24,760 bases of DNA from an uncultured Gammaproteobacteria bacterium (GCA_964507075.1 CAZDOL010000002.1:47465-72224); one strand, 5' to 3'; shown: positions 127 through 21,600, counted from the first letter of the stretch. Made by a program: numbers and translations. Notes: generated by a model not told the origin, from the letters alone.

Positions 127-195
127 CTTAGCACAATGAACCCCAAATTACAATTGGACTATTGGCAAGTTTCAAAAAGGTGGTATTATTAAAAT

Positions 196-1572
196 ATGGT
201 AAAAAACAAAAAGATACAATTTTTTGTTATTTCATTAATGGTTATTTCTTTGGTTAGTTCTGGTTTTGGTTGTAAATGCGTATCTAACGAAATGAAAGAA
301 AAAATTAAGCCGATAAATTTAGTTTATTGGCGAGCTCAAGATGGCAAGGATGCTTTTTCAGAAATAATCCAGAGATTTCAAAAACTTTATCCACATATTT
401 CTATTACCTATAATTTAATTCGTGCCGAAGAATATGAACAAGCTCTTTTAGAGGCTTGGGCTGAAGACAGGGGTCCGGATATTTTTTCTATTCCTAAAAA
501 TTGGTTAGGGAAATATCAGTCTAAGATTTTGCCTTTAGGGTTTTCTCAAGAGATAATAATGGCCCGTCAGATTATGGCAGGGACAATCAAAAAAGAACCT
601 AAGATTGTACAAGAAAAGAAAAAAGCATTAGATTTAAGAGAACTAAAGGAGATTTTTGTAGAAACAGTTTCTAATGATGTCTTAATTGATAATAAGATTT
701 ATGGTTTACCGTTGTCTTTAGATGTTTTGGCCCTTTATTATAATCGTGATCTTTTGAATGAGGCGGGTATTGTCAGTCCGCCACAAACATGGCAAGAGTT
801 TATAGACCAAGTTAGGATATTAAATCTTTGGGATGCTTATGGAAATTTTATTCGTTCTGGAGTTTCTTTAGGGACAGCTAACAATATTGAAAATTATACA
901 GATATTTTATCTTTATTGATGTTTCAAAATGGCACTTCCATAGTTAACGAAAAAGGGCAGGCAATTTTTGATCAACCACTTTTGGATGATAAAACCTATT
1001 TTCCAGGACAAGAAGCCCTTCGTTTTTATCTTAGTTTCGCTAACCCTTCTCAAGAGATTTATAGCTGGAATGAAAAAATGCCTGATTCAACGAGCGCTTT
1101 TACCCAGGGTTTAACTGCTTTTTTGTTCGGCTATTCTGATTATTTACCATTAATAAAAGAGCAGGCTCCTAAATTGAATTTTGACATTATTAAAACGCCT
1201 CAAATTAGTAGTTCATTAAAAGAAGTAAATTATGCTAATTATTGGTTGGAAACAGTTTCCAAAAAAACAAAACATCCACACGAAGCTTGGGCTTTTGTTT
1301 TACACGCTACTGAAGCGCAGAATGCTAAGACTTTTGTGGAAAGAGCGAAAAGACCAACTGCTCATAGAAGTTTAATCCAATTTCAATTAGAGGATTTTGA
1401 TTTAATTCCTTTTGCTTCCAGCGTTTTAACTGCTAAAACCTGGTATCAAGGAAAAAAATATTCTTTAGCAAAAGAGTCTTTCAAAGAAATGATAGAAAGC
1501 GTTTTATTTGGACAAAAAACAATCCAAGAGGCGATTAAATATTGTGTTCAAAGAGTTAACTTAACAAATTAA
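196..1572 (+). CDS. ABC transporter extracellular solute-binding protein (family-1/MalE-like, probably sugar-binding), lipoprotein-type signal
   Basis: ATG start. The N-terminal hydrophobic segment ends in SSGFGC (lipobox-like). LVYWRAQDG...FQKLYPHISI...GPDIFSIP..WLGKY and the later IYGLPLSLDVLALYYNRDLL are typical SBP_bac_1-type sequence. No permease or ATPase gene lies downstream in the window. Confidence 0.8.
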   Translation: MVKNKKIQFFVISLMVISLVSSGFGCKCVSNEMKEKIKPINLVYWRAQDGKDAFSEIIQRFQKLYPHISITYNLIRAEEYEQALLEAWAEDRGPDIFSIPKNWLGKYQSKILPLGFSQEIIMARQIMAGTIKKEPKIVQEKKKALDLRELKEIFVETVSNDVLIDNKIYGLPLSLDVLALYYNRDLLNEAGIVSPPQTWQEFIDQVRILNLWDAYGNFIRSGVSLGTANNIENYTDILSLLMFQNGTSIVNEKGQAIFDQPLLDDKTYFPGQEALRFYLSFANPSQEIYSWNEKMPDSTSAFTQGLTAFLFGYSDYLPLIKEQAPKLNFDIIKTPQISSSLKEVNYANYWLETVSKKTKHPHEAWAFVLHATEAQNAKTFVERAKRPTAHRSLIQFQLEDFDLIPFASSVLTAKTWYQGKKYSLAKESFKEMIESVLFGQKTIQEAIKYCVQRVNLTN

Positions 1573-1612
1573 GAACATTAGAACATGGGAACATTAGAAC
1601 ATGGGAACATTA
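1573..1612 (+). repeat. Five tandem octamers: GAACATTA GAACATGG GAACATTA GAACATGG GAACATTA (a 16-bp unit x2.5)
   Basis: Read directly from the sequence. The array starts one base after the SBP stop codon and contains the ATG (1585) of the next ORF. A second ATG at 1601 is out of frame. Confidence 0.9.
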
Positions 1613-2265
1613 CATCAAAGAAAAAGAAAATTATTTTTGCTATATTTATATTTGCCCTTTTGTTTTTTGTATTGAATGCTGATGTAGTAAAAGCAGAAGG
1701 TTCATCTGGTCCTTGTAATGAGTTCTGCGGAAGAGAATGTCCTACACTTCAGATTGACGGAGAAGATTTTGACTATGGTTGTCGCAAAATTGGCCTTAAA
1801 AGCGACGGGGCAACTGCTTTATGTAGTTGTTGCCAATGCACTTTTATTGATTTGAGTAAAAACAAAAATGTAGTATGTGATTGCAATTGTCAAGATGAGA
1901 ACAAGATTAAAGATTGTTATGTTGGTGGTTTGTTTGGAGGTTGGCGCACCGCTGTTTGTTCATGTTGCGGAGATTGCACCCTAAATGATTTATTGTACAT
2001 TGGTGTTAGTATAGCTGAGTTAATTTTAAAGTATTTAGGAGTCATTGCCTTGTTTATTTTTATTCTGGGTGGTATAATTTGGATAACCTCTGGGGGAGCT
2101 CAAGAGAAAGTTAAAAAAGGAACAGCCATTATTAAAGGAGCAATTATTGGCATAATAATTGTTATAACTGCCTTTTTGGTAGTTAGGGTAATTATGAGAG
2201 ACATACTGAAGGTGGATTCAGAATACTTGCCTGAATCAAGTAGTCGAGAGTATAAAATTTCTTAG
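1585..2265 (+). CDS. Chimeric T4SS-type (TrbC/VirB2-like) pilin with a Cys-rich N-terminal extracellular module
   Basis: Signal/TM segment KKKKIIFAIFIFALLFFVLNADVVKAEG, then ~90 aa with 16 Cys by hand count. This part includes a duplicated motif (ALCSCCQCTFIDL / AVCSCCGDCTLNDL). The C-terminus has the pilin core LGVIALFIFILGGIIWITSGGAQEKVKKG plus a second TM helix, shared with the four ORFs downstream. Confidence 0.7.
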   Translation: MGTLEHGNITSKKKKIIFAIFIFALLFFVLNADVVKAEGSSGPCNEFCGRECPTLQIDGEDFDYGCRKIGLKSDGATALCSCCQCTFIDLSKNKNVVCDCNCQDENKIKDCYVGGLFGGWRTAVCSCCGDCTLNDLLYIGVSIAELILKYLGVIALFIFILGGIIWITSGGAQEKVKKGTAIIKGAIIGIIIVITAFLVVRVIMRDILKVDSEYLPESSSREYKIS

Positions 2266-2287
2266 TAAATATAGACAAATTTGGTAT

Positions 2288-2629
2288 ATGGATAAAAAAC
2301 ATTTTATTTTTATTATTATCTTAATTGGTGTTTTTGCTATAAGTTATGTTTCCTGTGCTGCTGAAACGGTTAAGCTCCCAAATCCTTTAGAGGGAAAAGA
2401 CGATATTCCCATTTTAGTAGGCAATATTATTAATTATGTTTTGGGAATTCTTGGAGTTTTGGCTTTGGTTATGTTTATTTATGGTGGTTTAACTTGGATG
2501 ACCTCTGAAGGATCGCCAGATAAAATAAAGAAAGGCAAAGACACCCTTATATGGGCAATATTAGGTTTGGCTTTAATTTTTTTCAGTTATTCTCTTTTGG
2601 ATTTTGTTCTCGCAGCATTACAGCAATAG
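2288..2629 (+). CDS. T4SS-type (TrbC/VirB2-like) pilin paralog
   Basis: Signal peptide, then core LGVLALVMFIYGGLTWMTSEGSPDKIKKGKDTLIWAILGLALIFFSY. This is two TM helices joined by a W-M-T-S-x-G-x3-K loop. Confidence 0.75.
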   Translation: MDKKHFIFIIILIGVFAISYVSCAAETVKLPNPLEGKDDIPILVGNIINYVLGILGVLALVMFIYGGLTWMTSEGSPDKIKKGKDTLIWAILGLALIFFSYSLLDFVLAALQQ

Positions 2630-2644
2630 GATGATTTAATGGCT

Positions 2645-2672
2645 GGGGGTTGACCCCCACACCATAACAAGG
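2645..2672. repeat. Palindromic repeat, right-arm copy: GGGGG-TTGA-CCCCC hairpin followed by ACACCATAACAAGG
   Basis: CCCCCACACCATAACAAGG (2654-2672) is the reverse complement of CCTTGTTTGGTGTGGGGGG (2942-2960), apart from one indel. Confidence 0.85.
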
Positions 2673-2681
2673 ATAGAAATT

Positions 2682-2939
2682 ATGTTCTATACTTATATTA
2701 TAAAAAGCATTAAAGATAACGATTGTTATATCGGTTATACATCTGATCTTCAAAAAAGACTTAAAGAACATAATTCTAAATTAAATAAATCAACTAAACA
2801 TAGGACTCCTTTTAAAATTATTTATTACGAAGCTTATGCCTCTAAAGATGACGCTACAAGAAGAGAGCATAACCTTAAATTAAGGGCTAGAGCTTTTAGG
2901 CAATTAAAATTGAGAATTAAAAAAAGCTTAGAGAATTAA
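2682..2939 (+). CDS. Small GIY-YIG nuclease superfamily protein (UPF0213/YhbQ-like, 85 aa)
   Basis: MFYTYIIKS...DCYIGYTSDLQKRLKEHN...YYEAY....A..RE..LK. This gives the GIY/YIG-type strands plus the conserved Arg/Glu pattern of the minimal GIY-YIG domain. Confidence 0.8.
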   Translation: MFYTYIIKSIKDNDCYIGYTSDLQKRLKEHNSKLNKSTKHRTPFKIIYYEAYASKDDATRREHNLKLRARAFRQLKLRIKKSLEN

Positions 2940-2941
2940 AT

Positions 2942-2983
2942 CCTTGTTTGGTGTGGGGGGTTGCCCCCACACTAAACAGCAAT
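2942..2983. repeat. Full copy of the palindromic repeat: CCTTGTTTGGTGTGGGGGG-TTG-CCCCCACACTAAACAGCAAT
   Basis: Self-complementary, with roughly 16-bp arms and mismatches. Its left arm pairs with 2654-2672 and its right arm with 3078-3098. Confidence 0.85.
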
Positions 2984-3077
2984 AATGCTCTTTTGCATTT
3001 TTAAGTTCCCTTAAGGTAAAGTAATTTTTTACCACAAATAGATTAAATCGTATGGCGGCGATTCGCATTGAAAATGC

Positions 3078-3104
3078 ATTGCTGTTATAGTGTGGGGGTT
3101 GACA
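3078..3104. repeat. Palindromic repeat, left-arm copy: ATTGCTGTTATAGTGTGGGGG-TTGAC, truncated before the C5 arm
   Basis: The reverse complement, CCCCCACACTATAACAGCAAT, matches 2964-2983 apart from one indel. Confidence 0.85.
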
Positions 3105-3127
3105 TTTTTTTAAATTGTTTTTATATT
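3099..3127 (+). promoter_or_regulatory. Sigma70-like promoter candidate: TTGACA (3099-3104), 17-bp spacer, TATATT (3122-3127)
   Basis: Near-consensus hexamers at optimal spacing, ~50 bp upstream of the ATG at 3176. The -35 hexamer is contributed by the truncated palindromic repeat. Confidence 0.5.
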
Positions 3128-3175
3128 ATTAAATAATAGGTCGAATAATTAATTATCCTCTCTAATCATAGAGAA

Positions 3176-3565
3176 ATGAAAAATTGCAATAAAAAATTTT
3201 TGTCTTTCTTCATTATAATATCCTTGTCTTTGTTGCTTTTTTTTCCTTTACTGACCAGAACTAATGCTGTTAGTCTTGATGAGGAATTAGAAGGCTTTAG
3301 GAAAGGGGCTACATTAGGGGAAGCTAGTTTAGGAACAGTTATTGGAAAAGTGGTTAAGGGCGCTTTGGGTATTTTTGGTTTAGTTTGTTTGGTTATTTTT
3401 ATTATGGCTGGTTTCCAATGGATGAATTCCGGAGGACATAAAGAAAAAATTGCTGGTGCGCAAAAATCAATGGGCGCAGCTATTCTTGGCATGATTATTA
3501 TAATTGCCGCTTATGCAGCAGTGGATTTTATTACCAAAGCTTTATCTACGGTTACCGCTAAATAA
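3176..3565 (+). CDS. T4SS-type (TrbC/VirB2-like) pilin paralog
   Basis: Signal peptide ending TRTNA, then core FGLVCLVIFIMAGFQWMNSGGHKEKIAGAQKSMGAAILGMIIIIAAYAAVDFI. Confidence 0.75.
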   Translation: MKNCNKKFLSFFIIISLSLLLFFPLLTRTNAVSLDEELEGFRKGATLGEASLGTVIGKVVKGALGIFGLVCLVIFIMAGFQWMNSGGHKEKIAGAQKSMGAAILGMIIIIAAYAAVDFITKALSTVTAK

Positions 3566-3615
3566 CCAAAGTAGTATTCTTTCTCGATTAAAAAAGAGGA
3601 TAAAAGAGGTTTAAA

Positions 3616-3987
3616 ATGAAAAAATATTTACCTTTAATTGGCGTAGTATTAATGTTAGCTTTATTGGTTACTCCTGCTTTAGCACAAAATCTTGATAATG
3701 GTTTTATGATTGAATTTCAAGGTAATGCTGGGATTGGAGACAACACTATAGCTGAAGTTGTTGGTCAAGTAGTCAAAGCAGTTCTAAGTATTTTGGGTTT
3801 AGTAGCTTTAGTTATCTTTATAATTGCTGGTTTCCAATGGATGACATCTGGTGGTAATAAAGAAAAAATTCAGAGTGCGCAAAAATTAATGGGCGCAGCA
3901 GTAATTGGTTTGGTTATTATAATTATCGCCTATGCCGCTGCTTCTTTTATTATCAGTGCGTTAACTGATGTAACTGGGACGGCATAA
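3616..3987 (+). CDS. T4SS-type (TrbC/VirB2-like) pilin paralog, a close tandem duplicate of 3176-3565
   Basis: Signal peptide ending PALAQ, then core LGLVALVIFIIAGFQWMTSGGNKEKIQSAQKLMGAAVIGLVIIIIAYAAASFI. An AAAAGAGG motif occurs twice upstream and is SD-like. Confidence 0.75.
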   Translation: MKKYLPLIGVVLMLALLVTPALAQNLDNGFMIEFQGNAGIGDNTIAEVVGQVVKAVLSILGLVALVIFIIAGFQWMTSGGNKEKIQSAQKLMGAAVIGLVIIIIAYAAASFIISALTDVTGTA

Positions 3988-4023
3988 TTTATTCTTTAGA
4001 AATACGGTCAATTATTCAATTCT

Positions 4024-4458
4024 ATGGCTAGAAATTTTTCTTATCCAGAAAAAATATTTTCGGGTATTCTGTTAATTATTGTTCTAACTTTGATTTTTTG
4101 TAGCAGTCCAGTTTTAGCAGATAGTCCTCGAGACCAACTTAATGTTGTAGCTGGTCAAGTTGGCATCGCAACTACCAATTCTTTGGGTTATACATTTGGA
4201 CTTGTTTTTCAGAAAATATTGGGAGTAATGGGTTTGATTTTGTTGGTTTTATTTGTTATTGGTGGTATAACGTGGATGACTTCTGAGGGCAATGCAGAAA
4301 AACTAAAGAAAGCTAGGGGTTTATTGATTCATGCCATAATTGGTTTAATTATTATCTTAGTTTCTTATGCTTTGATTAATTTTGTGACCGAGAAACTGCA
4401 GGAAGTTGTTGATGCAAAAGAAATTCCTGCAACAGAAGTTCCTGCAACAGGTGATTAA
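4024..4458 (+). CDS. T4SS-type (TrbC/VirB2-like) pilin paralog with a short repeat tail
   Basis: Core MGLILLVLFVIGGITWMTSEGNAEKLKKARGLLIHAIIGLIIILVSYALINFV. The C-terminal tail EIPAT-EVPAT is encoded by two perfect TTCCTGCAACAG 12-mers (4424-4435 and 4439-4450). Confidence 0.75.
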   Translation: MARNFSYPEKIFSGILLIIVLTLIFCSSPVLADSPRDQLNVVAGQVGIATTNSLGYTFGLVFQKILGVMGLILLVLFVIGGITWMTSEGNAEKLKKARGLLIHAIIGLIIILVSYALINFVTEKLQEVVDAKEIPATEVPATGD

Positions 4459-4496
4459 ATAATAATTATTGATTATTCATATTTATTATATATATC

Positions 4497-4527
4497 AAAA
4501 ATATATCTGAATATCAGATATATTTTT
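4497..4527. terminator. Bidirectional intrinsic terminator between convergent genes
   Basis: Perfect 14-bp stem AAAAATATATCTGA / TCAGATATATTTTT with a 3-nt ATA loop. The A-run and T-run are built into the stem ends. It lies between the pilin stop (4458) and the GT2 stop (4554). Confidence 0.6.
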
Positions 4528-4553
4528 GTTTTGAATTGATTGATTATTAAATA

Positions 4554-5294
4554 TCAAAGAAGACGATATTTTAATCTAATTATTTCTTTTAGATACCCTA
4601 ATGCTGTTTTAATAATCTTAACTTTTGTTTTTCTTTCATTTTTATCTTCCCAATTAATTGGTATTTCTTTAATTTTGAGATTATGATGTCGAGCCAATAC
4701 TAAGAGTTCAGTGTCAAAGAAAAAACCATTGTTTTCAATTTTTGGGATAATTTTTTGAACAGCTGATTTGGAAAGCGCTTTAAATCCGCAATGGGTATCA
4801 GTTAATTTAATGTTAAAAAATATTTTAAGAATAAAATTATAGAATATAGAATACACAGAGCGCATTAGAGATCGTTTGCAGTGGCTTTGTTTCTGATATC
4901 GCGAGCCAATAGTTAAATCATATTTTTCTTTAATTATCCCTTTAATTAAGGGAAGTGTAAATTTTAGTTCAGTAGCCAAATCAGCATCCATAAAAATATT
5001 AACATCAACTAAATAATCCAGCCATGCTTTTTTAATAGCCAACCCCTTTTTATCAGGTTGTGATAAATGGAAGTATTCTAAATTAGAATATTTTTGTTTT
5101 TTTTGTTGGATTATTTTTATGGTTTTATCTGTTGAGCCGTTGTCAGCCACGATTATTTTCCATTTATATTCTTGAAGATTATTTTTACAAAAAATAAAAA
5201 GCTGATTAATTTTTTGCTCAATAATTTTTTCTTCATTATATGTTGGGATAACCACCAAAACGCTTTTCTTTTTTAGATTATGTTTAGTCTCCAT
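4554..5294 (-). CDS. Family-2 glycosyltransferase (polyprenol-phosphate sugar synthase / Dpm1-like)
   Basis: VVIPTYNEE...ADNGSTDKT...MDADLAT (DxD) plus a C-terminal amphipathic tail. This is a typical GT2 GT-A fold signature. Confidence 0.8.
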   Translation of the reverse strand: METKHNLKKKSVLVVIPTYNEEKIIEQKINQLFIFCKNNLQEYKWKIIVADNGSTDKTIKIIQQKKQKYSNLEYFHLSQPDKKGLAIKKAWLDYLVDVNIFMDADLATELKFTLPLIKGIIKEKYDLTIGSRYQKQSHCKRSLMRSVYSIFYNFILKIFFNIKLTDTHCGFKALSKSAVQKIIPKIENNGFFFDTELLVLARHHNLKIKEIPINWEDKNERKTKVKIIKTALGYLKEIIRLKYRLL

Positions 5295-5301
5295 ATTGTT
5301 T

Positions 5302-7044
5302 TTATTTTAACAACTTCTTAATGATTTTTATATTTTCTTCTGACACAGAACCAATAGTTTGTCCATTTTTTTCTTCAGGGTCTTTTTCTAAATCATAAAG
5401 GGTAATTTCTTTTTCTTTCGCGTTATATTGATATTTTAAATTATCTTTAACAAAATTCAAGGGGCATTTATAGTCAGAGGGTTGGATTAAAGGGATAAGT
5501 TTATTATTAAGTATTTCTTTGCCCTGAAGCTCGGGCCAGAAGGATTGGCTAAATTTGTTTTCAGAATAATCAATTTGGAAGAAATCCAAAAATGTTGGCA
5601 AAATATCTAAATGACTATAAACACCGTTTATTTTTATGTTTTTATATTTTTCTTCATCACCTATAACCAAAACCAGAGAAGTAATAAAATTTTCTTCAAA
5701 AGCCATTCTTTGGTTGAAAGTATTGTTTTGATGAAACTCAGCTGGCCAACCATGGTCTCCCAAAATAAGCAAAGTATAATTTTTTTCAGGAAAAAGTTTG
5801 TTAATATTTTCCCAAGCAACAGTCAAATATTTATCCTGCAGAAAAGTGGTATTTTGTAATTTTTCACGATGATTTTTAGGATTTTTATAAGGAACTAGAT
5901 TTTCTAATCCTAAAGGAGTGTGAAAGGGCCAATGATTGGTTGGACCCACTTCTATATATAAAAAATTACGTTTTTCTTTGTTTTTTTCAATATAATTAAA
6001 AACTTTTTCATAAAAAATGTCTTCCCTAAATCCCCAGAGATATTGAGGGTCATCTTTAGACATAATATCATCAGCGTGTATTTCGTCAAAGCGTAAATTC
6101 TTCATAAATTCTTTTGTTCGGGCAAAACTTAAATCATAACTTTTGAGAAAAAATGTTTTGTATCCTAAATTTTTCATTATTTCAGGCCAACAAATAATTT
6201 TTTTATCAAAATTACTAGAAACAAGTGTTAATTTAAAAGAACCAGGAAAAGAGCATAGTAAATTTTCTTGGCCTAATATAGTTTCAATACTATTGCTATA
6301 AAATTTAGGAAAAAGAATACCATTTTTGGCTATTTCTAAAAAATTTGGCGTAATTTTTTCACTGACCAAAAAACCATTCAAACTTTCTATTTGAAGAATG
6401 ATGATATTGTCTAAGTATGGAGGGATGTTATTTTGATTAATTTTTTGAACTTGAGAGATTATATTCTCTTTATTTTTTTCAGATTTTTTAATCAATTCTA
6501 AATATATATCTTGATAATATTCTATTATCTCATCTTTGTGGAGTAAAGTTTTGCCGAAAGAGAATAGTTCGTTGTTTGCGGAAGGAAAAATAAAAAATTG
6601 AACCAAGATTGCAATTAATAAAATTAGATAAATAATTTTATTTTTAATTTTTAATTTTATTTTTTGAATTAGCAAACAATTCAAGAGAGCTGCAAAAAAC
6701 AAGATTATCAAGGGGCAGATTAAACTTAAAATGATGTTATGGTTAGAGCCCTGAATAAGGCGTTTAATAAAGTAAATGTTAGGACTATTTTGAAATAAAA
6801 GAAAATAAACAACAAGAGATAAGTATAGTAAATAAACAATTGTGGACAAGAGAACTCCAGCTATTCTTGAAATTTTAGAAAAGAAATATGACAAAAGAAC
6901 AAGGAAAGTTATAGCCTGGAACCATTTATATAACCCTAAAAAGGCATTACATTTCCAGGAAGATGCCATAATAATCAACAGATTCGTTAGGGTAAAGACA
7001 AATATCAAGAAAATGCTGTATATTAATCCTCTTTTAATTGTCAT
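5302..7044 (-). CDS. Membrane-anchored sulfatase/alkaline-phosphatase-superfamily transferase (LtaS / phosphoglycerol-transferase-like)
   Basis: About five N-terminal TM helices, then an extracytoplasmic domain with ILQIESLNGF, NSIET, and GDHGWP. The start ATG overlaps the upstream gene's stop as ATGA at 7041-7044. Confidence 0.65.
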   Translation of the reverse strand: MTIKRGLIYSIFLIFVFTLTNLLIIMASSWKCNAFLGLYKWFQAITFLVLLSYFFSKISRIAGVLLSTIVYLLYLSLVVYFLLFQNSPNIYFIKRLIQGSNHNIILSLICPLIILFFAALLNCLLIQKIKLKIKNKIIYLILLIAILVQFFIFPSANNELFSFGKTLLHKDEIIEYYQDIYLELIKKSEKNKENIISQVQKINQNNIPPYLDNIIILQIESLNGFLVSEKITPNFLEIAKNGILFPKFYSNSIETILGQENLLCSFPGSFKLTLVSSNFDKKIICWPEIMKNLGYKTFFLKSYDLSFARTKEFMKNLRFDEIHADDIMSKDDPQYLWGFREDIFYEKVFNYIEKNKEKRNFLYIEVGPTNHWPFHTPLGLENLVPYKNPKNHREKLQNTTFLQDKYLTVAWENINKLFPEKNYTLLILGDHGWPAEFHQNNTFNQRMAFEENFITSLVLVIGDEEKYKNIKINGVYSHLDILPTFLDFFQIDYSENKFSQSFWPELQGKEILNNKLIPLIQPSDYKCPLNFVKDNLKYQYNAKEKEITLYDLEKDPEEKNGQTIGSVSEENIKIIKKLLK

Positions 7045-8699
7045 TTGTTTTTGGGCAAATTATTTCTGTAGATAATCGCTTGTTCGTCTTCATAAACTTT
7101 TTCTAAATTTGTTGATTTTTTTAGTAGTTTTGCGAATTTTTCATCGTTTTTTGATTTTGACGCAATAATATATGAAGCTTTGAATTTTTCTTTGATAATT
7201 TTTGCTGTTTGCTCGGGATCAACATTACCTGTAAATAAATCATCCCAATCATTGTAAAGTTTTTTGTCATATTCATACATAAATGTTTGGTCTAAACCAT
7301 TGACGTAATAATGGCTGTCATCAAAATAGAGTAATTCCGGGAATATATCCCAATTGCTATGAAATATTATCTCTTGAGAAGGAACACTATTTCTAATCCA
7401 TTGTGTTGCCCCCTGAAGGTAGTTGACTGGGCGAGAGCTATTTTGATAGGATTGCTTTAATCCATAAACTCCATGAATTAAATAGAAAATTAAGAAAAAA
7501 GCGCAAGCAGAGCTTAATATGATTGTTGTAATAAAATAAAAAGTATTTTCAGTTGAAGAAAATAAACGTTTAATTTGTTTTCGAACATTGTCCCAGTTTA
7601 TACTTTTTATAATCTGAGTGAAAATTAAAGCATTAAAGATTATGATTATTGGTGCTAAATACTCAATAATTCGACGCGCTTTCAGGGTATACGCTAGAAA
7701 GAATATAGACAGAAGAGCAAAAAACCATTGTTTAGTTTTTTGTTTCTTGATGAAAGAAATAAACCAAGCGATTGATATTATATATGGTATTAAAAGGGGC
7801 AAAGTATCTAATAAGAAATTGGGCATTTCTGAAGGATACCACTCTGCTCCTACTCCAATTAAATTTTGATAGTTCAAAACAGCTATCTTAACAGTTTGAA
7901 ACCAATAAAAAGGAAATGTTTTGGGAAAGTAAGGATTGATAATAAGTCCGATGAGTAACCCCGAAAAACAATATAAAAGTAGTTTTACGTTTGAACGATT
8001 AAAAAAAGATTTAAAAAATAAGGCAAATTTTATTGATTGTTTTTTGATTAGTTTTTCTATGGCATACGAAAAACAGTAGATAAGCGCGCAAACAAACATT
8101 AATGGCCAGCCACCATAAGTCCAAACATAAAAGACAGAGATTAAAAAAATACCTAAATATTTTTTGCGTACAATATAATAGAGTCCTAAAATTAGGATAA
8201 CCAGAGAAAGAGCAGGGCTTCTGCTTAAAGAAAGTCGAAATAAAAAATTTGTTATCAAAAAACTGCTTAATATCCATAGCAAAGGTAGCTTAACTTTTAA
8301 TTTGCGCAAAAACCAATAAATTGCAAGAATAGCCAAAGCCGCAAAAAAAGCGCTAGCTAATTTTACTTTTAACAATGGGTCTATTTGGGTTGATAAAATA
8401 TCAAAATTTTTAGGCGTTGGAATGCTTAAAAACGGAAGAAGTAAAAGATGATATCCAAAATGATGGTCAACAAATAGATTTTTATAAGTAGTAAATTGAG
8501 TCCATGGGAAATCTTTAACAATATTTCCCTCTTTCACAAGTAATGCCATTTTCGTGTGGTAAAAGCCGTCTGGACACAACAATGTTGGGGGGGCTAAAAC
8601 ATAAAGAAAAATAATAAAAGCAACGGCAAATACTATTAAATAAATTAACCATTGCCTTTTGTATATAAGTTTATAAATTTTTAATATAATATCAATCAT
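7041..8699 (-). CDS. Polytopic membrane protein, putative GT-C-fold glycosyltransferase (ArnT/PMT/STT3-like)
   Basis: More than ten predicted TM helices, a first loop containing PDGFYHTKMA, and a soluble C-terminal domain. The ORF track starts at a TTG (8723) lying inside an octamer repeat. The first ATG is at 8699 (MIDIILKIY...), and I prefer that start. Confidence 0.5.
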   Translation of the reverse strand: MIDIILKIYKLIYKRQWLIYLIVFAVAFIIFLYVLAPPTLLCPDGFYHTKMALLVKEGNIVKDFPWTQFTTYKNLFVDHHFGYHLLLLPFLSIPTPKNFDILSTQIDPLLKVKLASAFFAALAILAIYWFLRKLKVKLPLLWILSSFLITNFLFRLSLSRSPALSLVILILGLYYIVRKKYLGIFLISVFYVWTYGGWPLMFVCALIYCFSYAIEKLIKKQSIKFALFFKSFFNRSNVKLLLYCFSGLLIGLIINPYFPKTFPFYWFQTVKIAVLNYQNLIGVGAEWYPSEMPNFLLDTLPLLIPYIISIAWFISFIKKQKTKQWFFALLSIFFLAYTLKARRIIEYLAPIIIIFNALIFTQIIKSINWDNVRKQIKRLFSSTENTFYFITTIILSSACAFFLIFYLIHGVYGLKQSYQNSSRPVNYLQGATQWIRNSVPSQEIIFHSNWDIFPELLYFDDSHYYVNGLDQTFMYEYDKKLYNDWDDLFTGNVDPEQTAKIIKEKFKASYIIASKSKNDEKFAKLLKKSTNLEKVYEDEQAIIYRNNLPKNK

Positions 8700-8711
8700 T
8701 TTTAAAAAATC

Positions 8712-8743
8712 CCAATTACCCAAGTACCCGATTACCCAACTCC
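8712..8743. repeat. Tandem octamers CCAATTAC CCAAGTAC CCGATTAC CCAACTCC
   Basis: The 8-bp period was read directly from the sequence. The array sits in the divergent intergenic region between the GT-C-like gene and yebC. Confidence 0.85.
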
Positions 8744-10172: not shown

Positions 10173-10203
10173 CCGATTACCCAATCTCTAATTACCCAAG
10201 CAT
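10173..10203. repeat. Octamer-family repeats CCGATTAC CCAATCTC TAATTAC CCAAGCAT
   Basis: Shares CCGATTACCCAA with 8728-8739. It abuts the stop codon of the minus-strand gene at 10203. Confidence 0.75.
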
Positions 10204-11432
10204 TAGCGTTTGGGATATATATATCCTACGATTTGCCATCCGCCTTGAGAAGTATTTTGCCAGGCGGTTGTCCTTCTTAATTTTCGGGTTACTGGTTTTT
10301 GGGTCCAACTTGGATTTGATGGACCATTCATTTCCGAGAAATAAACATAATTATCGTCAAATTTTTCTATATAAGCAACATGTCCATACCAATTATTGCA
10401 TCTCAAAACTACTATTGACCCCTCATCTCCTTTATTTAGAGTGAGACCCGTTTTAAATCCATCGTTTCTAGCGTTTTGTAGCCATGTTCTGGCATTTCCC
10501 CAATTACTTGGTCCTACACATTGACCTAATTCAGTTGCCCACTTATAGGCCACCCAATCAGTGCATTGACCTGGGTTCGTGTAGTAGCGTTTACATGATA
10601 CACAACAACGTTTATATCTCCAGTCTGTATAACTGCAATTACTTTTTTCCGTGGGAATAAAGGAAGAAATAGAGGAAGTTTTTGCTATGATTGGTTTTGG
10701 CACAGGAAGCGGTGAGCCATCAGGGATAATTAAAATTTCCCCTACTTGAAGATTGTCTGGGTTAATGAGATTGTTGAATGCAATTATTTCTCCAGTATCT
10801 ATTTTGTATTTTTCGGCAATCTGAGAAAGTTTTTCGTTTTTCTTTATTTTATGCAAAATTCCATCTACTGGCAGAATTGTTAACTCGTCTCCTGGCTGAA
10901 TATTGGCGCGCCAATAAGTTAAATCATTTGCCCAGAGTACCGTCCAAACACTTAAACCAAATTTTTCAGCAATATCCCAAGGATTGTCATTGGGTTCAAC
11001 CACATAAGTTTCGATTTCTGTCCTAGTGGGTATAATATTTGGACTAATTTCACTATTGACAGCAACAAGAGCAGTATTATTTAAAGTGAGAGCTAATTCT
11101 GGAGAGGGATATTCTTCTCTTAAGAGAGTAGCAATCTGGAAATCATAATTTTCCTTTTCAATTTTCGGGTTTTGCGCGGAGGAAATTCTATCTAAATGAA
11201 TATCTTTGCTGGTACTTTCGGAAAGAATAACGTTACTGCTTTGATTTATTATCTGTGCATAAGAAAAAAATATAAAAAATAAAACAGCCAGAATAACAGG
11301 CAGTTGTTTTTTGGGCTGTAAGTTTTTATAAATTCTAGACAAAAGGTGTCCAAAATAGATGGCACGAAGTATGCCTCTTTTTAAAGCCTTAATACTATAT
11401 CTGACAATTTGTCTTAATAGTTTATCTTGCAT
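10203..11432 (-). CDS. Membrane-anchored peptidoglycan hydrolase: 2x LysM plus a C-terminal CHAP domain
   Basis: TM anchor LPVILAVLFFIFFSYAQII. LysM repeats YVVEPNDNPWDIAEKFGLSV...L.PGDEL and HKIKKNEKLSQIAEKYKID...LQVGEILIIP. CHAP motifs QCTDWVAYKW and YGHVAYIE. The track start at 11438 is TTG, and the first ATG is 11432. Confidence 0.8.
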   Translation of the reverse strand: MQDKLLRQIVRYSIKALKRGILRAIYFGHLLSRIYKNLQPKKQLPVILAVLFFIFFSYAQIINQSSNVILSESTSKDIHLDRISSAQNPKIEKENYDFQIATLLREEYPSPELALTLNNTALVAVNSEISPNIIPTRTEIETYVVEPNDNPWDIAEKFGLSVWTVLWANDLTYWRANIQPGDELTILPVDGILHKIKKNEKLSQIAEKYKIDTGEIIAFNNLINPDNLQVGEILIIPDGSPLPVPKPIIAKTSSISSFIPTEKSNCSYTDWRYKRCCVSCKRYYTNPGQCTDWVAYKWATELGQCVGPSNWGNARTWLQNARNDGFKTGLTLNKGDEGSIVVLRCNNWYGHVAYIEKFDDNYVYFSEMNGPSNPSWTQKPVTRKLRRTTAWQNTSQGGWQIVGYIYPKR

Positions 11433-11492
11433 AAACAATTTTTTTTTTGTATAATAATGATTATTATGCCTAAAATTGTGAAAAAATCAAGT

Positions 11493-14943: not shown

Positions 14944-15639
14944 ATGAGAAATAAATCTAAAGTTTTTCAAATATTTTGCCTTTCAGTATTGGGGTTATTT
15001 GTTTTAGCCTTAGGTTTTTTTCAGATCAGGGGAGCGATTTATGGTCCATTTAAAGGTTTTAGAAAATCTAATACAGAGAAAGAATCAGCACTAACACAAG
15101 AAGAGATTTTATTTATTTTATCAGAGCAAGCCAAACAAGAAGACACAGATAAGGACGGCCTTTCTGATTATGACGAAGCTTATGTTTATAAAACATCTCC
15201 ATATATCCAAGATTCAGATAGCGACGCCTTTTCTGACCAAGAAGAAATAGAAGCGGGAAGTGATCCTTTGAATTCTAATTCAACGCCTTATCATCAGGCA
15301 GAGGATAATGAAGACAATCAATTAATAGATAAATCTTGGCCCGAGCCCCTTGAGGATGAACAATTTTCTTCAGAAGATATTAGGGATTTTTTAATTCATG
15401 CAGGAATAGACAAAGAAATTGTGGACAATATTGATGACAATGATTTAAAAAAGTTATATAATGAAACTAAAGAAGAAACAGGTATTGACCCGCAGGATTT
15501 AGGATTGTCATCTTCTCCTGAGGTTGATATTCTTTTATTAAGGCAAGCTCTAATAGATGAGGGGGTTGATGCTTTAATATTGGGAGAAATAGATGACGAG
15601 ACGTTAAAAGCAATGTTTTTGGAAAATTTAGGAAATTAA
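14944..15639 (+). CDS. N-terminally anchored, highly acidic protein with thrombospondin-type-3-like Ca-binding repeats and a duplicated C-terminal helical motif
   Basis: TM segment VFQIFCLSVLGLFVLALGFFQI. DTDKDGLSDYDE and DSDSDAFSDQEE match the DxDxDGxxDxxE pattern. Internal duplication: IRDFLIHAGIDKEIVDNIDDNDLKKLY / LRQALIDEGVDALILGEIDDETLKAMF. Confidence 0.6.
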   Translation: MRNKSKVFQIFCLSVLGLFVLALGFFQIRGAIYGPFKGFRKSNTEKESALTQEEILFILSEQAKQEDTDKDGLSDYDEAYVYKTSPYIQDSDSDAFSDQEEIEAGSDPLNSNSTPYHQAEDNEDNQLIDKSWPEPLEDEQFSSEDIRDFLIHAGIDKEIVDNIDDNDLKKLYNETKEETGIDPQDLGLSSSPEVDILLLRQALIDEGVDALILGEIDDETLKAMFLENLGN

Positions 15640-15662: not shown

Positions 15663-18600
15663 ATGAGATTTGGGAAATCAGGTAATATTTTTATCAAAGG
15701 AGCGATTTTATTAACAATGTTTATGTTAGTAATTTCCTCTTTTTTATTTTTACCACAAAAAACTCAAGCTCAATTTATTGTTGCTGATCCCATCAAGGGT
15801 GTTTGGGATGCGATGAAATGGGCATGGGATAAGGGTGGTGCAGTTGCTTATCGAAATGCTTTAAATTTCTTTTTACAACAAGCCGCCAAACAATCAGGTG
15901 AATGGTTGGCTACTGGAGATGCAGGCAAGAAACCAGCATTTTTAACTGATCCTGATTTTTTTAGTAAAGCAGGTGATCAAATGTTGGGAGAGTTTGTTGA
16001 TTCTGTGGCAGATAATTTTTTAGGACAAAGTCTTTGTGACACTTTAGATCCCACTGTTAAATTTAACATATTGGCTAATTTAGACCCAGATTATCAAAAA
16101 ATGAAATGGGCAGAAGAACCAAAATGTTCTTTCAGTCAAATTAAAAAGAATCTTGAAGAAGCAGACTGGGAAAATATGTTTGAGTTTTCTAGTGAGGTAA
16201 AAGAGGGGAAAGTTGCTAAGCAAAAATCAACTATTAGCTCTCTTATTCAAGGTGATTCAATCCTAACAGAAGAGAGGAAGTATACATTGGACGGCAAACT
16301 AGATATTTGTCCTGGGAGCGGTCTTGACATCTTACAATGTCCTGCTGGAGCTGTTAATTGGGCGTTAGGAAACGTTTTTTATTTTTATCAGGAAGACTAT
16401 CAAGGAGTTGGGTCATATTTGCATGAATATACTAATGAGTTTGAGGATATTTTAGAGGGACTGAAAAAAGATGCTCCAACCCTTGGACTTGTTCGTGAAT
16501 CAGGTGAATCTGAAGATGAGAAAGATGCTGAGGCTGTGGCGATAATGAAAGGAGAGGCCTCGGCAAGGCTCCAGGCATTAGAAAAACAATTAGATCCAGA
16601 AACAGGCGCAGAAATTTGGATTCCGGGAGAGGGTGAAGATATATTTAAATTAGCAAGTTTAAATAAGTGGGCCCCAGAATGTTTAGCAAAGGATAACAAG
16701 GTTTTATTAGATGACCCGCAATGTCGTGGTTTATGTGATGTGAAAATTTGGCTTCGCAATGATTCTAATTCTGTAAAGAAATGTACTAGCGCATTAGGTA
16801 AACCAACTGGAAGTGTGTGTACATCAAATTCTGACTGTGAATCAGGCAGTACTTGCGAAGAATGGTATGGAATGTGTCAAGGGGGAAGTCATAATGGAGA
16901 GTGGTGTAAGAATACTTCTCAGTGTTTATTGCCATTACCAGGCGTTTGTGTAGATGCTGGACCGATTTGTTATAATCGCATTAAGAGAGTGAATAAATAT
17001 ACCAAACAATTAATAGAGTGGGCCACTACCCTACAGGACATGATAACTCAAGTTCAAAATAACTGGGAAGCACAGAAAGGTATACCTGATTTAGATCCTT
17101 TGGAAGACGCACAGAATATGTTTAATCCAGAGAGTAGCGCCATTGGTATACAAATGAGCTTAGAGAGTAAATTATTTGAAAAACAAGCAGCTGCTATTGA
17201 AAAAAGTAAAATTTTTAGGAGTATTCAGGGTTCAATGAACGCAGTAACTTCAAAAGTTTCAGGCATTATTAAACTACCATCTACTTTTGTGAGTGAAAAA
17301 GCGCGGGAATCTGTAAAATCTGGGAGCGCTGGACCTTTAACTACCACAGGCGTGGCTTTAGCTGATGCTATTGGAGTTTTTGCCAACACTTTTATATCTC
17401 AGTATATGAAGATTCTTTTCACCAAAGGACTCAATCCAGGGGCAGATAGCAGCAGGGTCAATGTTCCTGATGATCCCGAGGATCCGCCAGATCCGGACAC
17501 AACTTCTATTTTAAGCGAAATAAAAGTAATCCCTATTAATCAAGCCAGTAATGAAATGAGTATTTATGATGAATTTGCAGTTTGTCCTACTGGTACCGAC
17601 CAAAAATATACTTCTCAATTTAATTGTTTATTAGATAATAAATTAGCTCGAGCTGTAGAAGAAAGAATGACCATTCAAGAAGCTATAGAGAATAGTCTTC
17701 TTAATCCTGAAGAACGTTTGGGTATAGCTGGTGATATGCGTAGTTTATTATCAAAGAGTCATATTCAAAAACTACGACTAATTGGTATTCTGCCCTTGGG
17801 CATGCAAATCGCCAGCAAAATAGTTATGGAAGGGCAATATACTAACGGAATGACTTTGGCTGAGGTGGTAGACGGATTTGATCAAAGGGGCGCAAATGGT
17901 ATTTGTGGTGATCTTGACTCAGGAGAAAGTGAATTTTGTAATCTGGTAGACCCTGATTGGGTTTTGAAAGCCCCCAGTTATTTATGTGAAATAACTGGTT
18001 ATTCAGCGATTCCCCTAAGAGATAGTTCTTTTCGCCAAGAATCCTGTTTAGATTTAAAAACATGTATTAACGAAACTGATGGCAATCAGTGTGATACATG
18101 GTCTTATTGCACCCGCGCAAAGAATGTTTGGCGTTTTGGTGGAGATGAATGTGATGCTCAGTATAATACTTGTGCTTCTTATGCCCAAAAAGATAGTGGA
18201 GAAATTTTCTCTTATCTTTCTAATACTTTAGATTTTAATAATTGTAGCGCCAGTAATGTTGGTTGCAAATGGTATTGTTCAAAATGGGACCAAATATATT
18301 CGGGCATAGGTGGTAATTGGCCTTGTTCGTCTCCTGGTTGGCGCAAATATACTTGTTATCTCGGAGGCTTGTGTGATGACCCTTCTTGTCTTTGCGCTTG
18401 CGACGGCGATAATGGTTGTCCTGATGGATTAGGGAGTTGTGATGTTGTAGAAGGAGGAATGTCTTGTTCCTTGGATAGTCCCGAATTAAGGAATGTAGCC
18501 TTTTTTAGTAATCATATTGGGGGATGCAAAGAAGTTGACGAGGGTTGTTCTAAATATATTAGAATTAAACCAGGAACAGGAGTTAATTTTTTGCCTAATG

Positions 18601-21600
18601 GAAGTTTTGAGTTGCCTTCTCAAGATGACGGCACTCCTTTTGGTTGGTATGTTAATAATTCAGCGATTATTCAACAAATTGCGCTTTCCTCGGGTGCGCA
18701 ACATAGCAGTAATGTGGTACAGATTCAGACCGGTAATTGCGAATTAAGTCAGACGGTTCATAATGTCCCTTTACAAGGAGATTTTACTTTCTCGGGATAT
18801 TATAAGAAAAATAGCATTTTATCTGGTAATTATAATTTAAAATTACAAATTTGTTATGACGATAATTGCGATGATTTGGACGAGATTGAGAAAATTATTG
18901 AGCTTGATAATAATAATTGGAAACCTGTTTCTGTGTCCTTATCTTCTAATATAGAGAAATCTATTGATCATGTTAAGATTTTCGCTTTTAATTCTTCTGA
19001 TTTTAGTGGTGATATTTATATTGACGCATTACAACTTAGAAACGAAAGTGGGAATTCGGTTTATAGAGAATATGGCTCTAATGGGATTACTTATTTTAAA
19101 AGTGCTCCCGGACAGATGAATTGTTATGATGGAGATGAGAGTAATAATAATACTGATTGTGATAATTTTATTCAAAAATGTGATTCACAAAATGTTGGTT
19201 GCGAATCTTATATTTCTATGAATGATAATATGTCAGATATTCCAGCCATAGTTGATAATTTAGATTTATGTCTTTCAGGTTGTGTTGGCTATGAAACTTT
19301 TGAAGAAATTCCGACCAATTTTGTTAGTAGTAATCGTTGGGTAGATTTAATTCCTCAAACAGCAAAAAAATGTTCTGCTCCAGGTTGTGAGGAATTTACG
19401 AATTTAGATGCCTTGTCTCAAGGAGGTGAAGCGAGAGAATACTATACTTATCTCCGCCAATGCGTTAAGACTAATGCTCAAGGATTGGCAATCGTGGATT
19501 CTCTGGGAAACGAAATTTCGCCAGCCACTGCCGATACTTGCCGATATTATTATACTTGGGTTGGAGAAGAAACAAACGGATATCAATTAAAGAAATATTA
19601 TTTAGAAGCTAATCTATCTTTAGGGGGGCCAGTTCAAGTTAGCGCAACCCCGAATTCTGATTGGGGTGATTGCGAAAACGAGGATGACGCAGACGAAAAT
19701 CCTCATTGCAGGCAATTTTACGACGCTATGGGCAATATTTATTATCGTCTTTATAAAAATACTGTTACTTGCTCGCAAGACTGTAGTCCTTATCGTAGAG
19801 AAGTGGACAACACAACTCATATGGCTATAAAAACAGAAGGAGAAATTTGCGGGTTCCAAGACGTTGGTTGCAGGGAGTATAAAGGGTCTGCTTATGGAAA
19901 TATGAAAAATTTATTCTTGGACAGATTCCTCTCCAGCACTGATCCATGGGAAAATGTTGAAATCAGCGGCGAATCAATCAATCACTTGGGCCAATCTATA
20001 AAAGCCGACAATAATTTGGCTCAAAGACCAGTAGATGATTTCATTAGTTCTAGGGGAAAGGTTTATTCTCTTTCATTGTGGGTTAAAGGAAGTGGTAATT
20101 ATATTGCATCTTTCGGCAATGATTTATATTTTATTAACGAAGGTTCTCATGATGTTTCAGTTGTTTCTAATGATTGGCAAGAGATAAGATTTGGTTCTGT
20201 TTATTTTAACAGAGAGCCAGAAAACGATGAAAAATTAATCATCCAAGGACCGAATCAATTTTATTTAGATAATATTACCCTTAATGAGGTTCAGGATAAT
20301 ATTTATTTAACTCAAAATTCTTGGAATACACCGGCGGTTTGTGATATTGATTCCGAAGGAAATATATTTTCTGGTTATATGCTTGGTTGTCAAGCTTATT
20401 GGGATAGGAGCAATAACGCGCATTATCTTAAATCATTTAGCCGTCTTTGCCCCACAAAAGCAGTTGGGTGCGAAGCTATAATTGACACAAAAAATTCAAT
20501 GTCTGCTTTTAGCGAAGAATTTAATGGAGGGCTTCCTCAGGGCGACGAAATTGTTATTCCCGCCGACAGCTTGATTTACAGGGTTTATGACACAGACAAG
20601 AGTTGTGCCTCTGAAAACAAAGGGTGTCAAAGATTTGGCTTACCAGAATTTGATTCTAGTCAAGAAATAATTGATTTCACAGATGTATATTTATTAAATA
20701 ATCCAGATTTATATAAACTTCAATCCATTCTATGCGACATAGAAGGAGAAGGGTGTCAAGAATATGATGGACGAGTTTATTTTAAAGAACCAGGTGACAA
20801 TATTTGTGAGTATCGTGAAAATGTTTTTATTAATGGAGAGAATAAAAATGGTTGGTTTAAAGGTGAAACTGATCAACCTTGTTATATAGAAAATGGTTTT
20901 GCCTATCAACCATATGGCACTGTTTATGGTATTCGTACTAATACAGATCTTTTATATGAGGGAATTGCTGGGGTTTGTCCTGAAAATCAGAATGGATGTA
21001 GTCGGTTTATTAATCCAACTGAACAAAATTTAGTTTTGAATAGTGGGTTTGAGTTAGATGAGAATGGAGATGATGTTCCTGATGATTGGGACCCATATGA
21101 AGATCCAGAAATATCATTTACCCTAGAAACGAATGATTGTTTGAGCGGAAATTGTTGGCGAATGAATCATATTGGCGCTGCAACTTCAGCTGGTTCGCAA
21201 TATATAGAAATACAACCAGGATATACTTATGAGCTTTCTGCATGGATGAAAGCAAGTGATACTTCTACTGGTACCAGCAGAATTTACCTTGCTTATGTTG
21301 ATGAATTTAATCCTGGGACTTGGTTAGATATTGCTCACTCTGAACAATTAGGTTCTACGGACGGAAAATGGATAAAACACACTGTTACATTAAAAGCTCC
21401 ATATAATGCCATGTACGCTAGAATTTTAGCTCCTTATGTTGACGGTTTCATGGATGTGAGGATAGATAATGTTTCCTTAATAGAACAATTTTCTCCGCAA
21501 GGCAGTTATTATTATTTAAACAATGAAAATATAGATAAGACTTCTTGTAATGCAATGGCAGGTTTAAAAGAAGGTTGTATCTTATTTAATGATACTTCAA

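Follow-up and report, generated by a model that had tools for sequence, protein, structure and literature searches.

Monoderm type IV secretion systems (T4SSs) normally lack a pilus. Those of the Patescibacteria (the candidate phyla radiation, CPR) have been singled out, in a 2025 review, as unique among monoderms in their potential to form a conjugative pilus, with six divergent VirB2-like pilins in Southlakia epibionticum (PMC12857230). In strain ML1 of that species the pilin series sits inside the T4SS cluster SEML1_0006-0019 and is essential by transposon sequencing (Tn-seq; Wang et al. 2023, Cell, PMC10633639); in co-cultures of Paceibacterales, T4SS_pilin genes rank with the most strongly expressed of those whose function is unknown (PMC10936435). 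A search of 3,035 Patescibacteria genomes with the families PF18895 and PF04956 found VirB4 in 2,417 assemblies and VirB2-like pilins in 1,948 of the VirB4-containing ones, near virB4 in 1,135 only (~40% without a nearby pilin), and recorded 441 arrays, each with 2-11 VirB2-like genes that stand in tandem or have one non-pilin gene between them; identity within arrays averages ~25% with a maximum of 54%, and Microgenomatia and Saccharimonadia are the richest in arrays (Quinonero-Coronel et al. 2025, Microb Genom, PMC12102498). The same work cites the virB2/trwL amplification of Anaplasma and Bartonella, where tandem, divergent chromosomal paralogues have been read as antigenic or host-range variants. 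VirB2-like pilins are abundant in CPR bacteria, and have proved essential in the only species in which this was examined. Here, we describe a 24,760-nt stretch of DNA (CAZDOL010000002.1:47465-72224 of GCA_964507075.1; the 'window' is this whole stretch) in which five divergent VirB2-like pilin genes, named P1 to P5 in 5' to 3' order, directly follow the gene for an extracellular solute-binding protein (SBP).

The array, which a preliminary description made from the sequence alone had taken to be unusual, is real, but such arrays are both published and common in Patescibacteria (PMC12102498, PMC10633639, PMC12857230); since they have already been reported (PMC12102498, PMC10633639), ours is a further example of a published phenomenon and, as an array alone, adds nothing new. 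What we offer as new leads, read from gene order and sequence, are a near-invariant link to the SBP and a fixed order in which a Cys-rich first pilin (the 'p1' type) precedes a canonical second one ('p2'). The five genes are as follows:

1585-2265, plus strand: P1, 226 aa; PF18895 28.0 bits
2288-2629, plus strand: P2, 113 aa; PF18895 48.0 bits, PF04956 32.9 bits
3176-3565, plus strand: P3, 129 aa; PF18895 30.4 bits
3616-3987, plus strand: P4, 123 aa; PF18895 32.7 bits, PF04956 23.1 bits (under the cut-off)
4024-4458, plus strand: P5, 144 aa; PF18895 33.7 bits

All five exceed the curated gathering threshold of PF18895 (T4SS_pilin), at 28.0-48.0 against 26.6 bits (E 2e-6 to 1e-12), and the resemblance between their cores is therefore not a matter of chance. 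P2 also exceeds that of PF04956 (TrbC/VirB2; 32.9 against 27.9 bits), with P4 (23.1) and P5 (10.3) below it and no match for P1 or P3 in the same scan; comparison with these two families, which the preliminary description had put forward as the check on its pilin assignment, has thus gone in favour of that assignment for all five proteins by PF18895, and for P2 by both. Scores of P2-P5 against NF045849, a pilin-like family of mycoplasma integrative and conjugative elements (ICEs), are 22-33 bits (E 4e-8 to 8e-5), under the cut-off of 40, so these proteins are not members of it. A profile of P2 orthologues and paralogues aligns colinearly with a hand-entered sequence of Agrobacterium tumefaciens VirB2 (hhalign E 5e-4, probability 30%; 30% identity over 57 columns, running from the mature N-terminus through both helices), and places the W-x-T-S-G-G stretch, the basic loop and G-x3-G in register with it. 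Relatives of P2 that carry a functional name are most often called 'pilin', in Patescibacteria records, the majority being unnamed or 'hypothetical protein'.

It could be argued that the shared core is nothing other than a generic membrane hairpin, unrelated to pilins; a fold search returns just that, generic hairpins (F-BAR, ATP synthase subunit c, a chemoreceptor), and there are many weak Pfam matches to unrelated transmembrane (TM) families. We consider this highly improbable, given that only PF18895 and TrbC score above curated cut-offs, with the other matches far below, that the motifs held in register with VirB2 are not hydrophobic ones, and that 75,961 family representatives (at the 50% identity level) reach E <= 1e-3 in a profile search. 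Taken together, the sequence comparisons support P1-P5 as divergent VirB2-like, conjugation-type pilins of family PF18895.

The homologues bear the names of Falkow-, Uhr-, Komeili-, Kuenen- or Buchananbacteria, or of Parcubacteria, and these names support a patescibacterial host (CPR, Parcubacteria/ABY1-like), that is, an ultra-small bacterium. Many GTDB species genomes with such operons (L012, L015, L018 and others) are titled 'uncultured Gammaproteobacteria bacterium' (binchicken/SRP co-assemblies), which looks like placeholder or wrong taxonomy.

As the preliminary description had it, five plus-strand open reading frames (ORFs) with a common C-terminal core are present in this region, and the core motif that it proposed agrees with the alignment in general, the exception being P3, which reads WMNS and not WMTS. 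The five are neighbours on the same strand but not strictly consecutive, an 85-aa GIY-YIG ORF and ~470 nt being inserted between P2 and P3. Of 14 invariant alignment columns, 11 lie in the core (L148, G152, L156, F159, G163, W166, S169, G171, K175, A186 and G189, in P1 numbering), and the remaining three are the start Met, K14 and G49. Pairwise identity is 27-50%, highest for P3 and P4 (50% over the full length, 62% in the core); the N-terminal parts are thus less disparate than had been claimed, in that all five begin with a signal peptide and P3 and P4 are 50% identical throughout.

Hydropathy shows three hydrophobic segments in each protein, a signal peptide with an AxA-type site (~24-37 aa by reading of that site) and two TM helices, with a Lys-rich inter-helix loop after W[MI][TN]S.G. 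The predicted two-helix hairpin is accordingly seen by hydropathy in all five and in the AlphaFold2 model of P2 (helices 40-71 and 77-112, mean pLDDT 82); the model of P1 has hairpin helices at 133-168 and 173-206. In P5 the N-terminal ectodomain is longer and a tail is present at the C-terminus, and P3 has an alternative TTG start at 3230 that would give 111 aa, the 129-aa form being the one with a proper charged n-region. A type IV pilin (T4P) identity, the marks of which are a short basic leader, a prepilin-peptidase site of the form G↓F-x-x-x-E and just one hydrophobic helix, at the N-terminus, is ruled out by the signal peptidase I leaders with AxA sites and by the two TM helices of the mature proteins.

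How constant this arrangement is was assessed in 79 loci from GTDB species genomes, picked by similarity to P2 and scanned with the family HMM, where 3-9 pilins in tandem are a common arrangement. The layout is constant in 31 loci (the window included): a long pilin of 142-336 aa, usually with a Cys-rich ectodomain, comes first, then the P2 orthologue, then 2-7 more. In 29 of 30 related arrays P1 finds its best match in the first gene, the P2 orthologue (42-69% identical) stands second in 24 of the 30, and the best match of P5 is the last gene in about half. Arrays of four genes have a single third gene to which P3 maps and P4 likewise, which implies a lineage-specific duplication, shared with L011 (the closest species locus, and our reference for identity comparisons); judging from this mapping, P3 and P4 are recent duplicates. 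Identity to L011 is 69% for P2 and for P4 and 47-50% for P1, P3 and P5, alongside 69% for YebC and 64% for RuvC.

One explanation for such a set is that the paralogues are interchangeable variants, expressed alternately to alter host range or to evade recognition by host or phage; this idea has been raised before (PMC12102498), with its parallel in virB2/trwL of Anaplasma and Bartonella, and it would sit well with the low identity within the array (27-50%), with a size that ranges from 1 to 9 genes between species, and with an internal promoter that could permit differential expression of P3-P5. The paralogues nonetheless keep their positions across species in which the proteins have diverged to 40-60% identity, and from this it follows that the set is ancient and that each member has been retained; recent amplification of the array is ruled out on the same ground. 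Four further loci of the same population, sampled in separate ENA and JGI metagenomes, are 100% identical at the amino-acid level save for one at 99%, which speaks against population-level switching, and there are no recombination cassettes or repeats between the copies, the only repeats being those of the GIY-YIG insertion. Alternating variants are on balance improbable in our view; fixed positions and unequal rates favour old, non-redundant, specialised subunits, with P2, the canonical and most conserved of them, as the candidate major subunit.

The first pilin has a character of its own. P1 consists of a signal peptide, a ~100-aa ectodomain with 16 Cys, a CCGDCTLND motif just ahead of TM1, and then the hairpin; an invariant C-x-x-CGDC-x-x-x-D stretch directly N-terminal of TM1 marks the whole p1 class, and C128, G129, C131 and D135 of P1 are invariant among 25 homologues. 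The ectodomain is modelled by AlphaFold2 as a small beta domain (pLDDT ~80). Some P1 orthologues (P0234-P0236; the first array gene of L012-L016, L028, L044, L048 and L064) carry a PF01471 (PG_binding_1) peptidoglycan-binding domain in a C-terminal Cys-rich extension that is absent from the P1 of the window; a peptidoglycan-binding domain at this end places the C-terminus outside the cell, as in the topology of VirB2.

The gene upstream of P1 had been set down in the preliminary description as a mere flank of the array; it is, on the contrary, the most tightly linked partner gene that the array has:

196-1572, plus strand: SBP gene; PF01547 (E 3e-22), PF13416 (E 6e-20), SGFGC lipobox

Its stop lies 13 nt from P1, and it is the conserved first gene of the operon. 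The product is an extracellular family-1 (sugar/CUT1-like) SBP, whose nearest solved relatives are oligosaccharide-binding (E 5e-12 and weaker), and it is probably a lipoprotein, because the lipobox pattern recurs in 92 of 120 homologues. Among the species genomes, upstream DNA is available for 33 arrays, and in 31 of these the SBP gene comes immediately upstream in the same orientation as the array; three divergent SBP homologues (48-50% identity) have PF18895 genes downstream in every case (3/3). A second, independent set, of 80 metagenome loci chosen by SBP similarity alone (41-67% identity), gives the same picture from the other side: where at least 400 nt of downstream sequence allows a count (73 of the 80), a co-oriented pilin starts between -28 and +621 nt from the SBP stop in 69 loci, with 1-9 pilins each, the other four being one with a pilin further off and three without a pilin. 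The pilin next to the SBP is usually of the p1 type: at least two Cys stand ahead of the core in 55 of the 70 genes that come first, compared with 21 of the 127 that come later. Genes outside the SBP-array pair vary, with PBP1, an NTP-transferase, TyrRS and others upstream and GT2, RluD and others downstream. At 76% identity to L011, the SBP is also better conserved than the housekeeping neighbours YebC (69%) and RuvC (64%).

No ABC permease or transport ATPase gene was found in the window, in ~8 kb further upstream, or among the annotated recurrent neighbours and Walker-A candidates of related loci, so that, of the three components of an ABC importer, only the SBP is represented at the locus, permease and ATPase being absent. 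The link between SBP and pilin goes unmentioned in any paper that could be searched.

A more distant clade within the SBP-selected set (~23 of the 80 loci, L109-L170) has the co-oriented order SMC/RecN-like, ComM-like (Mg_chelatase/YifB), SBP, pilin, the first two being the recurrent upstream ATPases of that clade; RecG lies near some arrays, and RuvC and YebC are in the window. Genes of DNA recombination or competence thus recur nearby, which may be mere synteny.

A T4SS ATPase or channel gene is lacking beside the array, as had been stated: Pfam finds no VirB4, VirD4 or VirB6 among the window ORFs of at least 80 aa, nor are there any in the adjoining ~8 kb upstream, read from a 71.7-kb contig that belongs to the same population, the search of the source genome extending no further than the contig. 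Annotation of the Walker-A ORFs of 159 related loci (all those of at least 450 aa in the 79 GTDB loci and of at least 400 aa in the 80 metagenome loci) turned up no VirB4. The only T4SS-type ATPase in these 159 loci is a VirD4-like protein of 837 aa, with T4SS-DNA_transf, TrwB and TraG-D_C domains, encoded ~3 kb from a solitary P2-like pilin in L069 (13638-16151) and in L070. Three proteins that recur beside solitary P2-like pilins (unk266, unk350 and unk352) were considered as T4SS parts and rejected, having no Pfam match and a hydropathy unlike that of VirB6; one of them is SPFH-like by eye, which we have not used as evidence.

Synthesising these observations, the reading that we favour, and hold to be somewhat probable, is that P1-P5 are exported by the Sec route and serve as subunits of a heteromeric surface structure of T4SS type, whose assembly would fall to a VirB4 machine with its genes elsewhere. 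It draws on membership of PF18895 and, for P2, of TrbC, on the alignment with VirB2, on the hairpin topology, on the published T4SS-linked pilin arrays, on the VirD4-like neighbour in L069 and L070, on the signs of specialised subunits, and on the high expression of T4SS_pilin genes in Paceibacterales co-cultures. We suggest that, once exported, the mature hairpins would collect in the cytoplasmic membrane, both of their ends facing outward. A T4SS of the MPF-FATA type (VirB4), encoded elsewhere in the genome, would extract them from there and polymerise them, giving a surface filament or conduit through which the host cell is contacted. The bulk subunit would then be P2, with P1 and P3-P5 as specialised minor ones, and the lipoprotein SBP may act at the same site in the envelope, either as a binder of a ligand or host glycan or as an assembly partner of p1.

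Several observations weigh against this proposal. VirB4, VirB6 and VirD4 are absent within +/-10 kb of 31 SBP-linked arrays and within +/-6 kb of the 80 SBP-selected loci. A search of the PDB with the family profile gives no sequence match, and Foldseek against the PDB none at E <= 0.001 (the best, at E 0.49, being generic helical hairpins, with the Aeropyrum pernix conjugation pilin 8dfu at rank 31 with E 4.2); the Foldseek outcome does not discriminate, however, because a two-helix hairpin is too simple a fold. To our knowledge, no PF18895 protein has a demonstrated filament, nor do we know of any described T4SS in which the near-obligatory SBP partner has a counterpart. Finally, many members of the family are single polypeptides of 2-17 fused tandem hairpins behind one N-terminal signal peptide (for example P0237, 820 aa; P0239, 1775 aa; P0240; P0243), which look like true fusions rather than read-through of separate genes; whilst they hint that the paralogues co-assemble, such chains are awkward for a classical helical pilus of one subunit unless they are processed.

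Alternatively, the SBP and the hairpin proteins might form a self-contained envelope module, independent of any T4SS, in which homology to VirB2 reflects ancestry and not current function; the hairpins could make up a membrane complex of hetero-oligomeric type, or else a short structure at the surface, and together with the lipoprotein capture or sense a host-derived sugar, glycerophosphodiester or lipid head-group. The adjacency of SBP and pilin is near-obligatory in both directions (in the arrays, the divergent SBPs and the SBP-selected loci alike), and the pairing outlives a full turnover of the outer flanks, from PBP1, NTP-transferase or TyrRS in one clade to SMC-ComM in another. The SBP is an orphan, with no permease or ATPase nearby, and is conserved beyond its housekeeping neighbours; across the 159 loci there is no T4SS linkage, bar the VirD4-like gene near the solitary pilins of L069 and L070; and the fused polypeptides suggest a fixed hetero-oligomer. 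Set against these points, we know of no transporter or sensor made of two-TM hairpins and an SBP, and linkage in an operon indicates a shared process, not independence of VirB4. In Saccharibacteria, moreover, homologous arrays sit within a T4SS cluster (PMC10633639). We judge a T4SS-independent module to be rather unlikely, and retain assembly by a distant VirB4 machine as the better account.

A related proposal, which we make only tentatively, is that the SBP and the Cys-rich p1 are the conserved core of an undescribed patescibacterial envelope apparatus, to which P2-P5 would be accessory, and in which a ligand-binding protein is coupled mechanistically to a pilin polymer or hetero-oligomer. 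A possible role for it would be the capture of host sugar, glycerophosphodiester or lipid head-group at the contact between epibiont and host, distinct from, or added to, transfer by a T4SS. Were the coupling mechanistic, it would connect a pilus-like structure of obligate epibionts with the recognition of nutrients or of the host surface. The SBP link, the p1-p2 order and the multi-hairpin fusions are in any case handles on the problem, in that they point to the SBP as a candidate partner for interaction, and to P2 as the candidate major subunit beside candidate minor ones.

The operon carries the following signals, the promoters coming from a consensus scan, alongside one insertion:

162-189, plus strand: promoter-like TTGGCA-16-TATTAT with TG, 10/12, weak evidence
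2630-3098, plus strand: inserted cassette of ~470 nt, a GIY-YIG ORF with palindromes; missing from L011
3099-3127, plus strand: internal promoter-like TTGACA-17-TATATT, 11/12, the best match of the region, ahead of P3-P4-P5
4496-4528, unstranded: 15-bp AT-rich hairpin with a T run, from a terminator scan, between the convergent P5 and GT2 genes

There appear to be two transcription units, SBP-P1-P2, with its putative start at 162-189, and P3-P4-P5, from the internal promoter, which recurs in L011 with the same hexamers and with the sequence downstream of them conserved, even though the proteins there are only 47-76% identical; the hairpin at 4496-4528 likely acts as a terminator in both directions, at which transcription of the array stops. 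A GC-rich hairpin (TCTCGCCATGGGCGAGG) occurs in two identical copies, at 32-48 and 103-119, 71 nt apart; both are upstream of the SBP gene, on the downstream side of a divergent PBP1 gene, and look like terminators or a repeat element.

The insertion contains the 85-aa GIY-YIG ORF (2682-2939; PF01541, E 2.6e-18), flanked by GC-rich palindromes, GTGTGGGGG..CCCCCACAC, at 2641-2662 and 2951-2972 (a pattern with 4 matches against 0.00 expected), and short direct repeats, TGGGGGTTGAC and ACAGCAATA. The P2-P3 intergenic region of L011 measures only 80 nt, and the insertion has the look of a small mobile cassette whose arrival left the operon undamaged. Another GIY-YIG gene lies close to a related array in L091.

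Beyond the array, the window is ordinary CPR chromosome (~30-38% GC), in which tRNA and Rfam scans came back empty. The SBP gene and the array are followed by opposite-strand genes for a GT2, a sulfatase-family protein and a 560-aa polytopic protein; further genes encode YebC, RuvC, a LysM-CHAP hydrolase, LeuRS, KsgA, a TSP3-repeat protein and a protein of 2,800 aa. The minus-strand genes that converge on the array (4554-8723) comprise the GT2 (polyprenol-phosphate sugar synthase-like), a 580-aa membrane protein of the sulfatase/LtaS family, and the 560-aa polytopic protein, which has a weak archaeal STT3 match; the GT2 and the 560-aa gene lie downstream of arrays in ~16-18 of the 79 loci. The LysM-CHAP protein (10203-11438, minus strand), a peptidoglycan hydrolase with two LysM domains, is syntenic only with L011; CHAP/LysM proteins are VirB1-like candidates discussed for patescibacterial T4SSs. 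The TSP3-repeat gene (14944-15639) is followed by the 2,800-aa ORF (15663-24065), whose sole Pfam match is CBM_4_9 (carbohydrate-binding), and which looks like a giant surface protein of the typical CPR kind, possibly a host adhesin.

Of the described systems, the arrays of the patescibacterial survey (PMC12102498) come closest, with the same Pfam families, 2-11 genes with one non-pilin gene, low identity and a frequent distance from virB4; the present one has five genes, a single GIY-YIG gene between them and 27-50% identity. The SBP, the fixed gene positions and the Cys-rich first subunit are, by a search for the terms, not mentioned there, and its arrays peak in Microgenomatia and Saccharimonadia, whereas the relatives here are the Falkow-, Uhr-, Komeili-, Kuenen- and Buchananbacteria and Parcubacteria. 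The Southlakia ML1 array is likewise a series of VirB2-like pilins, divergent in sequence and similar in structure, in a monoderm CPR bacterium; its genes sit inside a T4SS cluster and are essential, whereas here we have genes only, with no T4SS gene within ~33 kb. The Mbov_0395/MMCAP2_0565 family (NF045849) shares the VirB2-like hairpin, and belongs to MPF-FATA-type conjugation systems of wall-less or monoderm bacteria, but P2-P5 score under its cut-off, as given above.

VirB2 (Ti plasmid), TrbC (RP4) and TraA (F) come from diderm hosts, have leaders of ~50 aa, are cyclised or acetylated, and form lipid-bound filaments for which structures have been solved. Like them, P1-P5 are small, Sec-exported, and two-helix hairpins with a basic loop when mature, but the classical pilins have one gene per locus, beside VirB3 and VirB4, where we find five without a VirB4 cluster, and their leaders compare with signal peptides of ~24-37 aa here. 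The amplified virB2 paralogues of Anaplasma and Bartonella are similarly tandem, divergent and chromosomal; they belong, however, to diderm intracellular pathogens, whereas the paralogues described here are ancient, orthologous by position, and paired with an SBP of their own.

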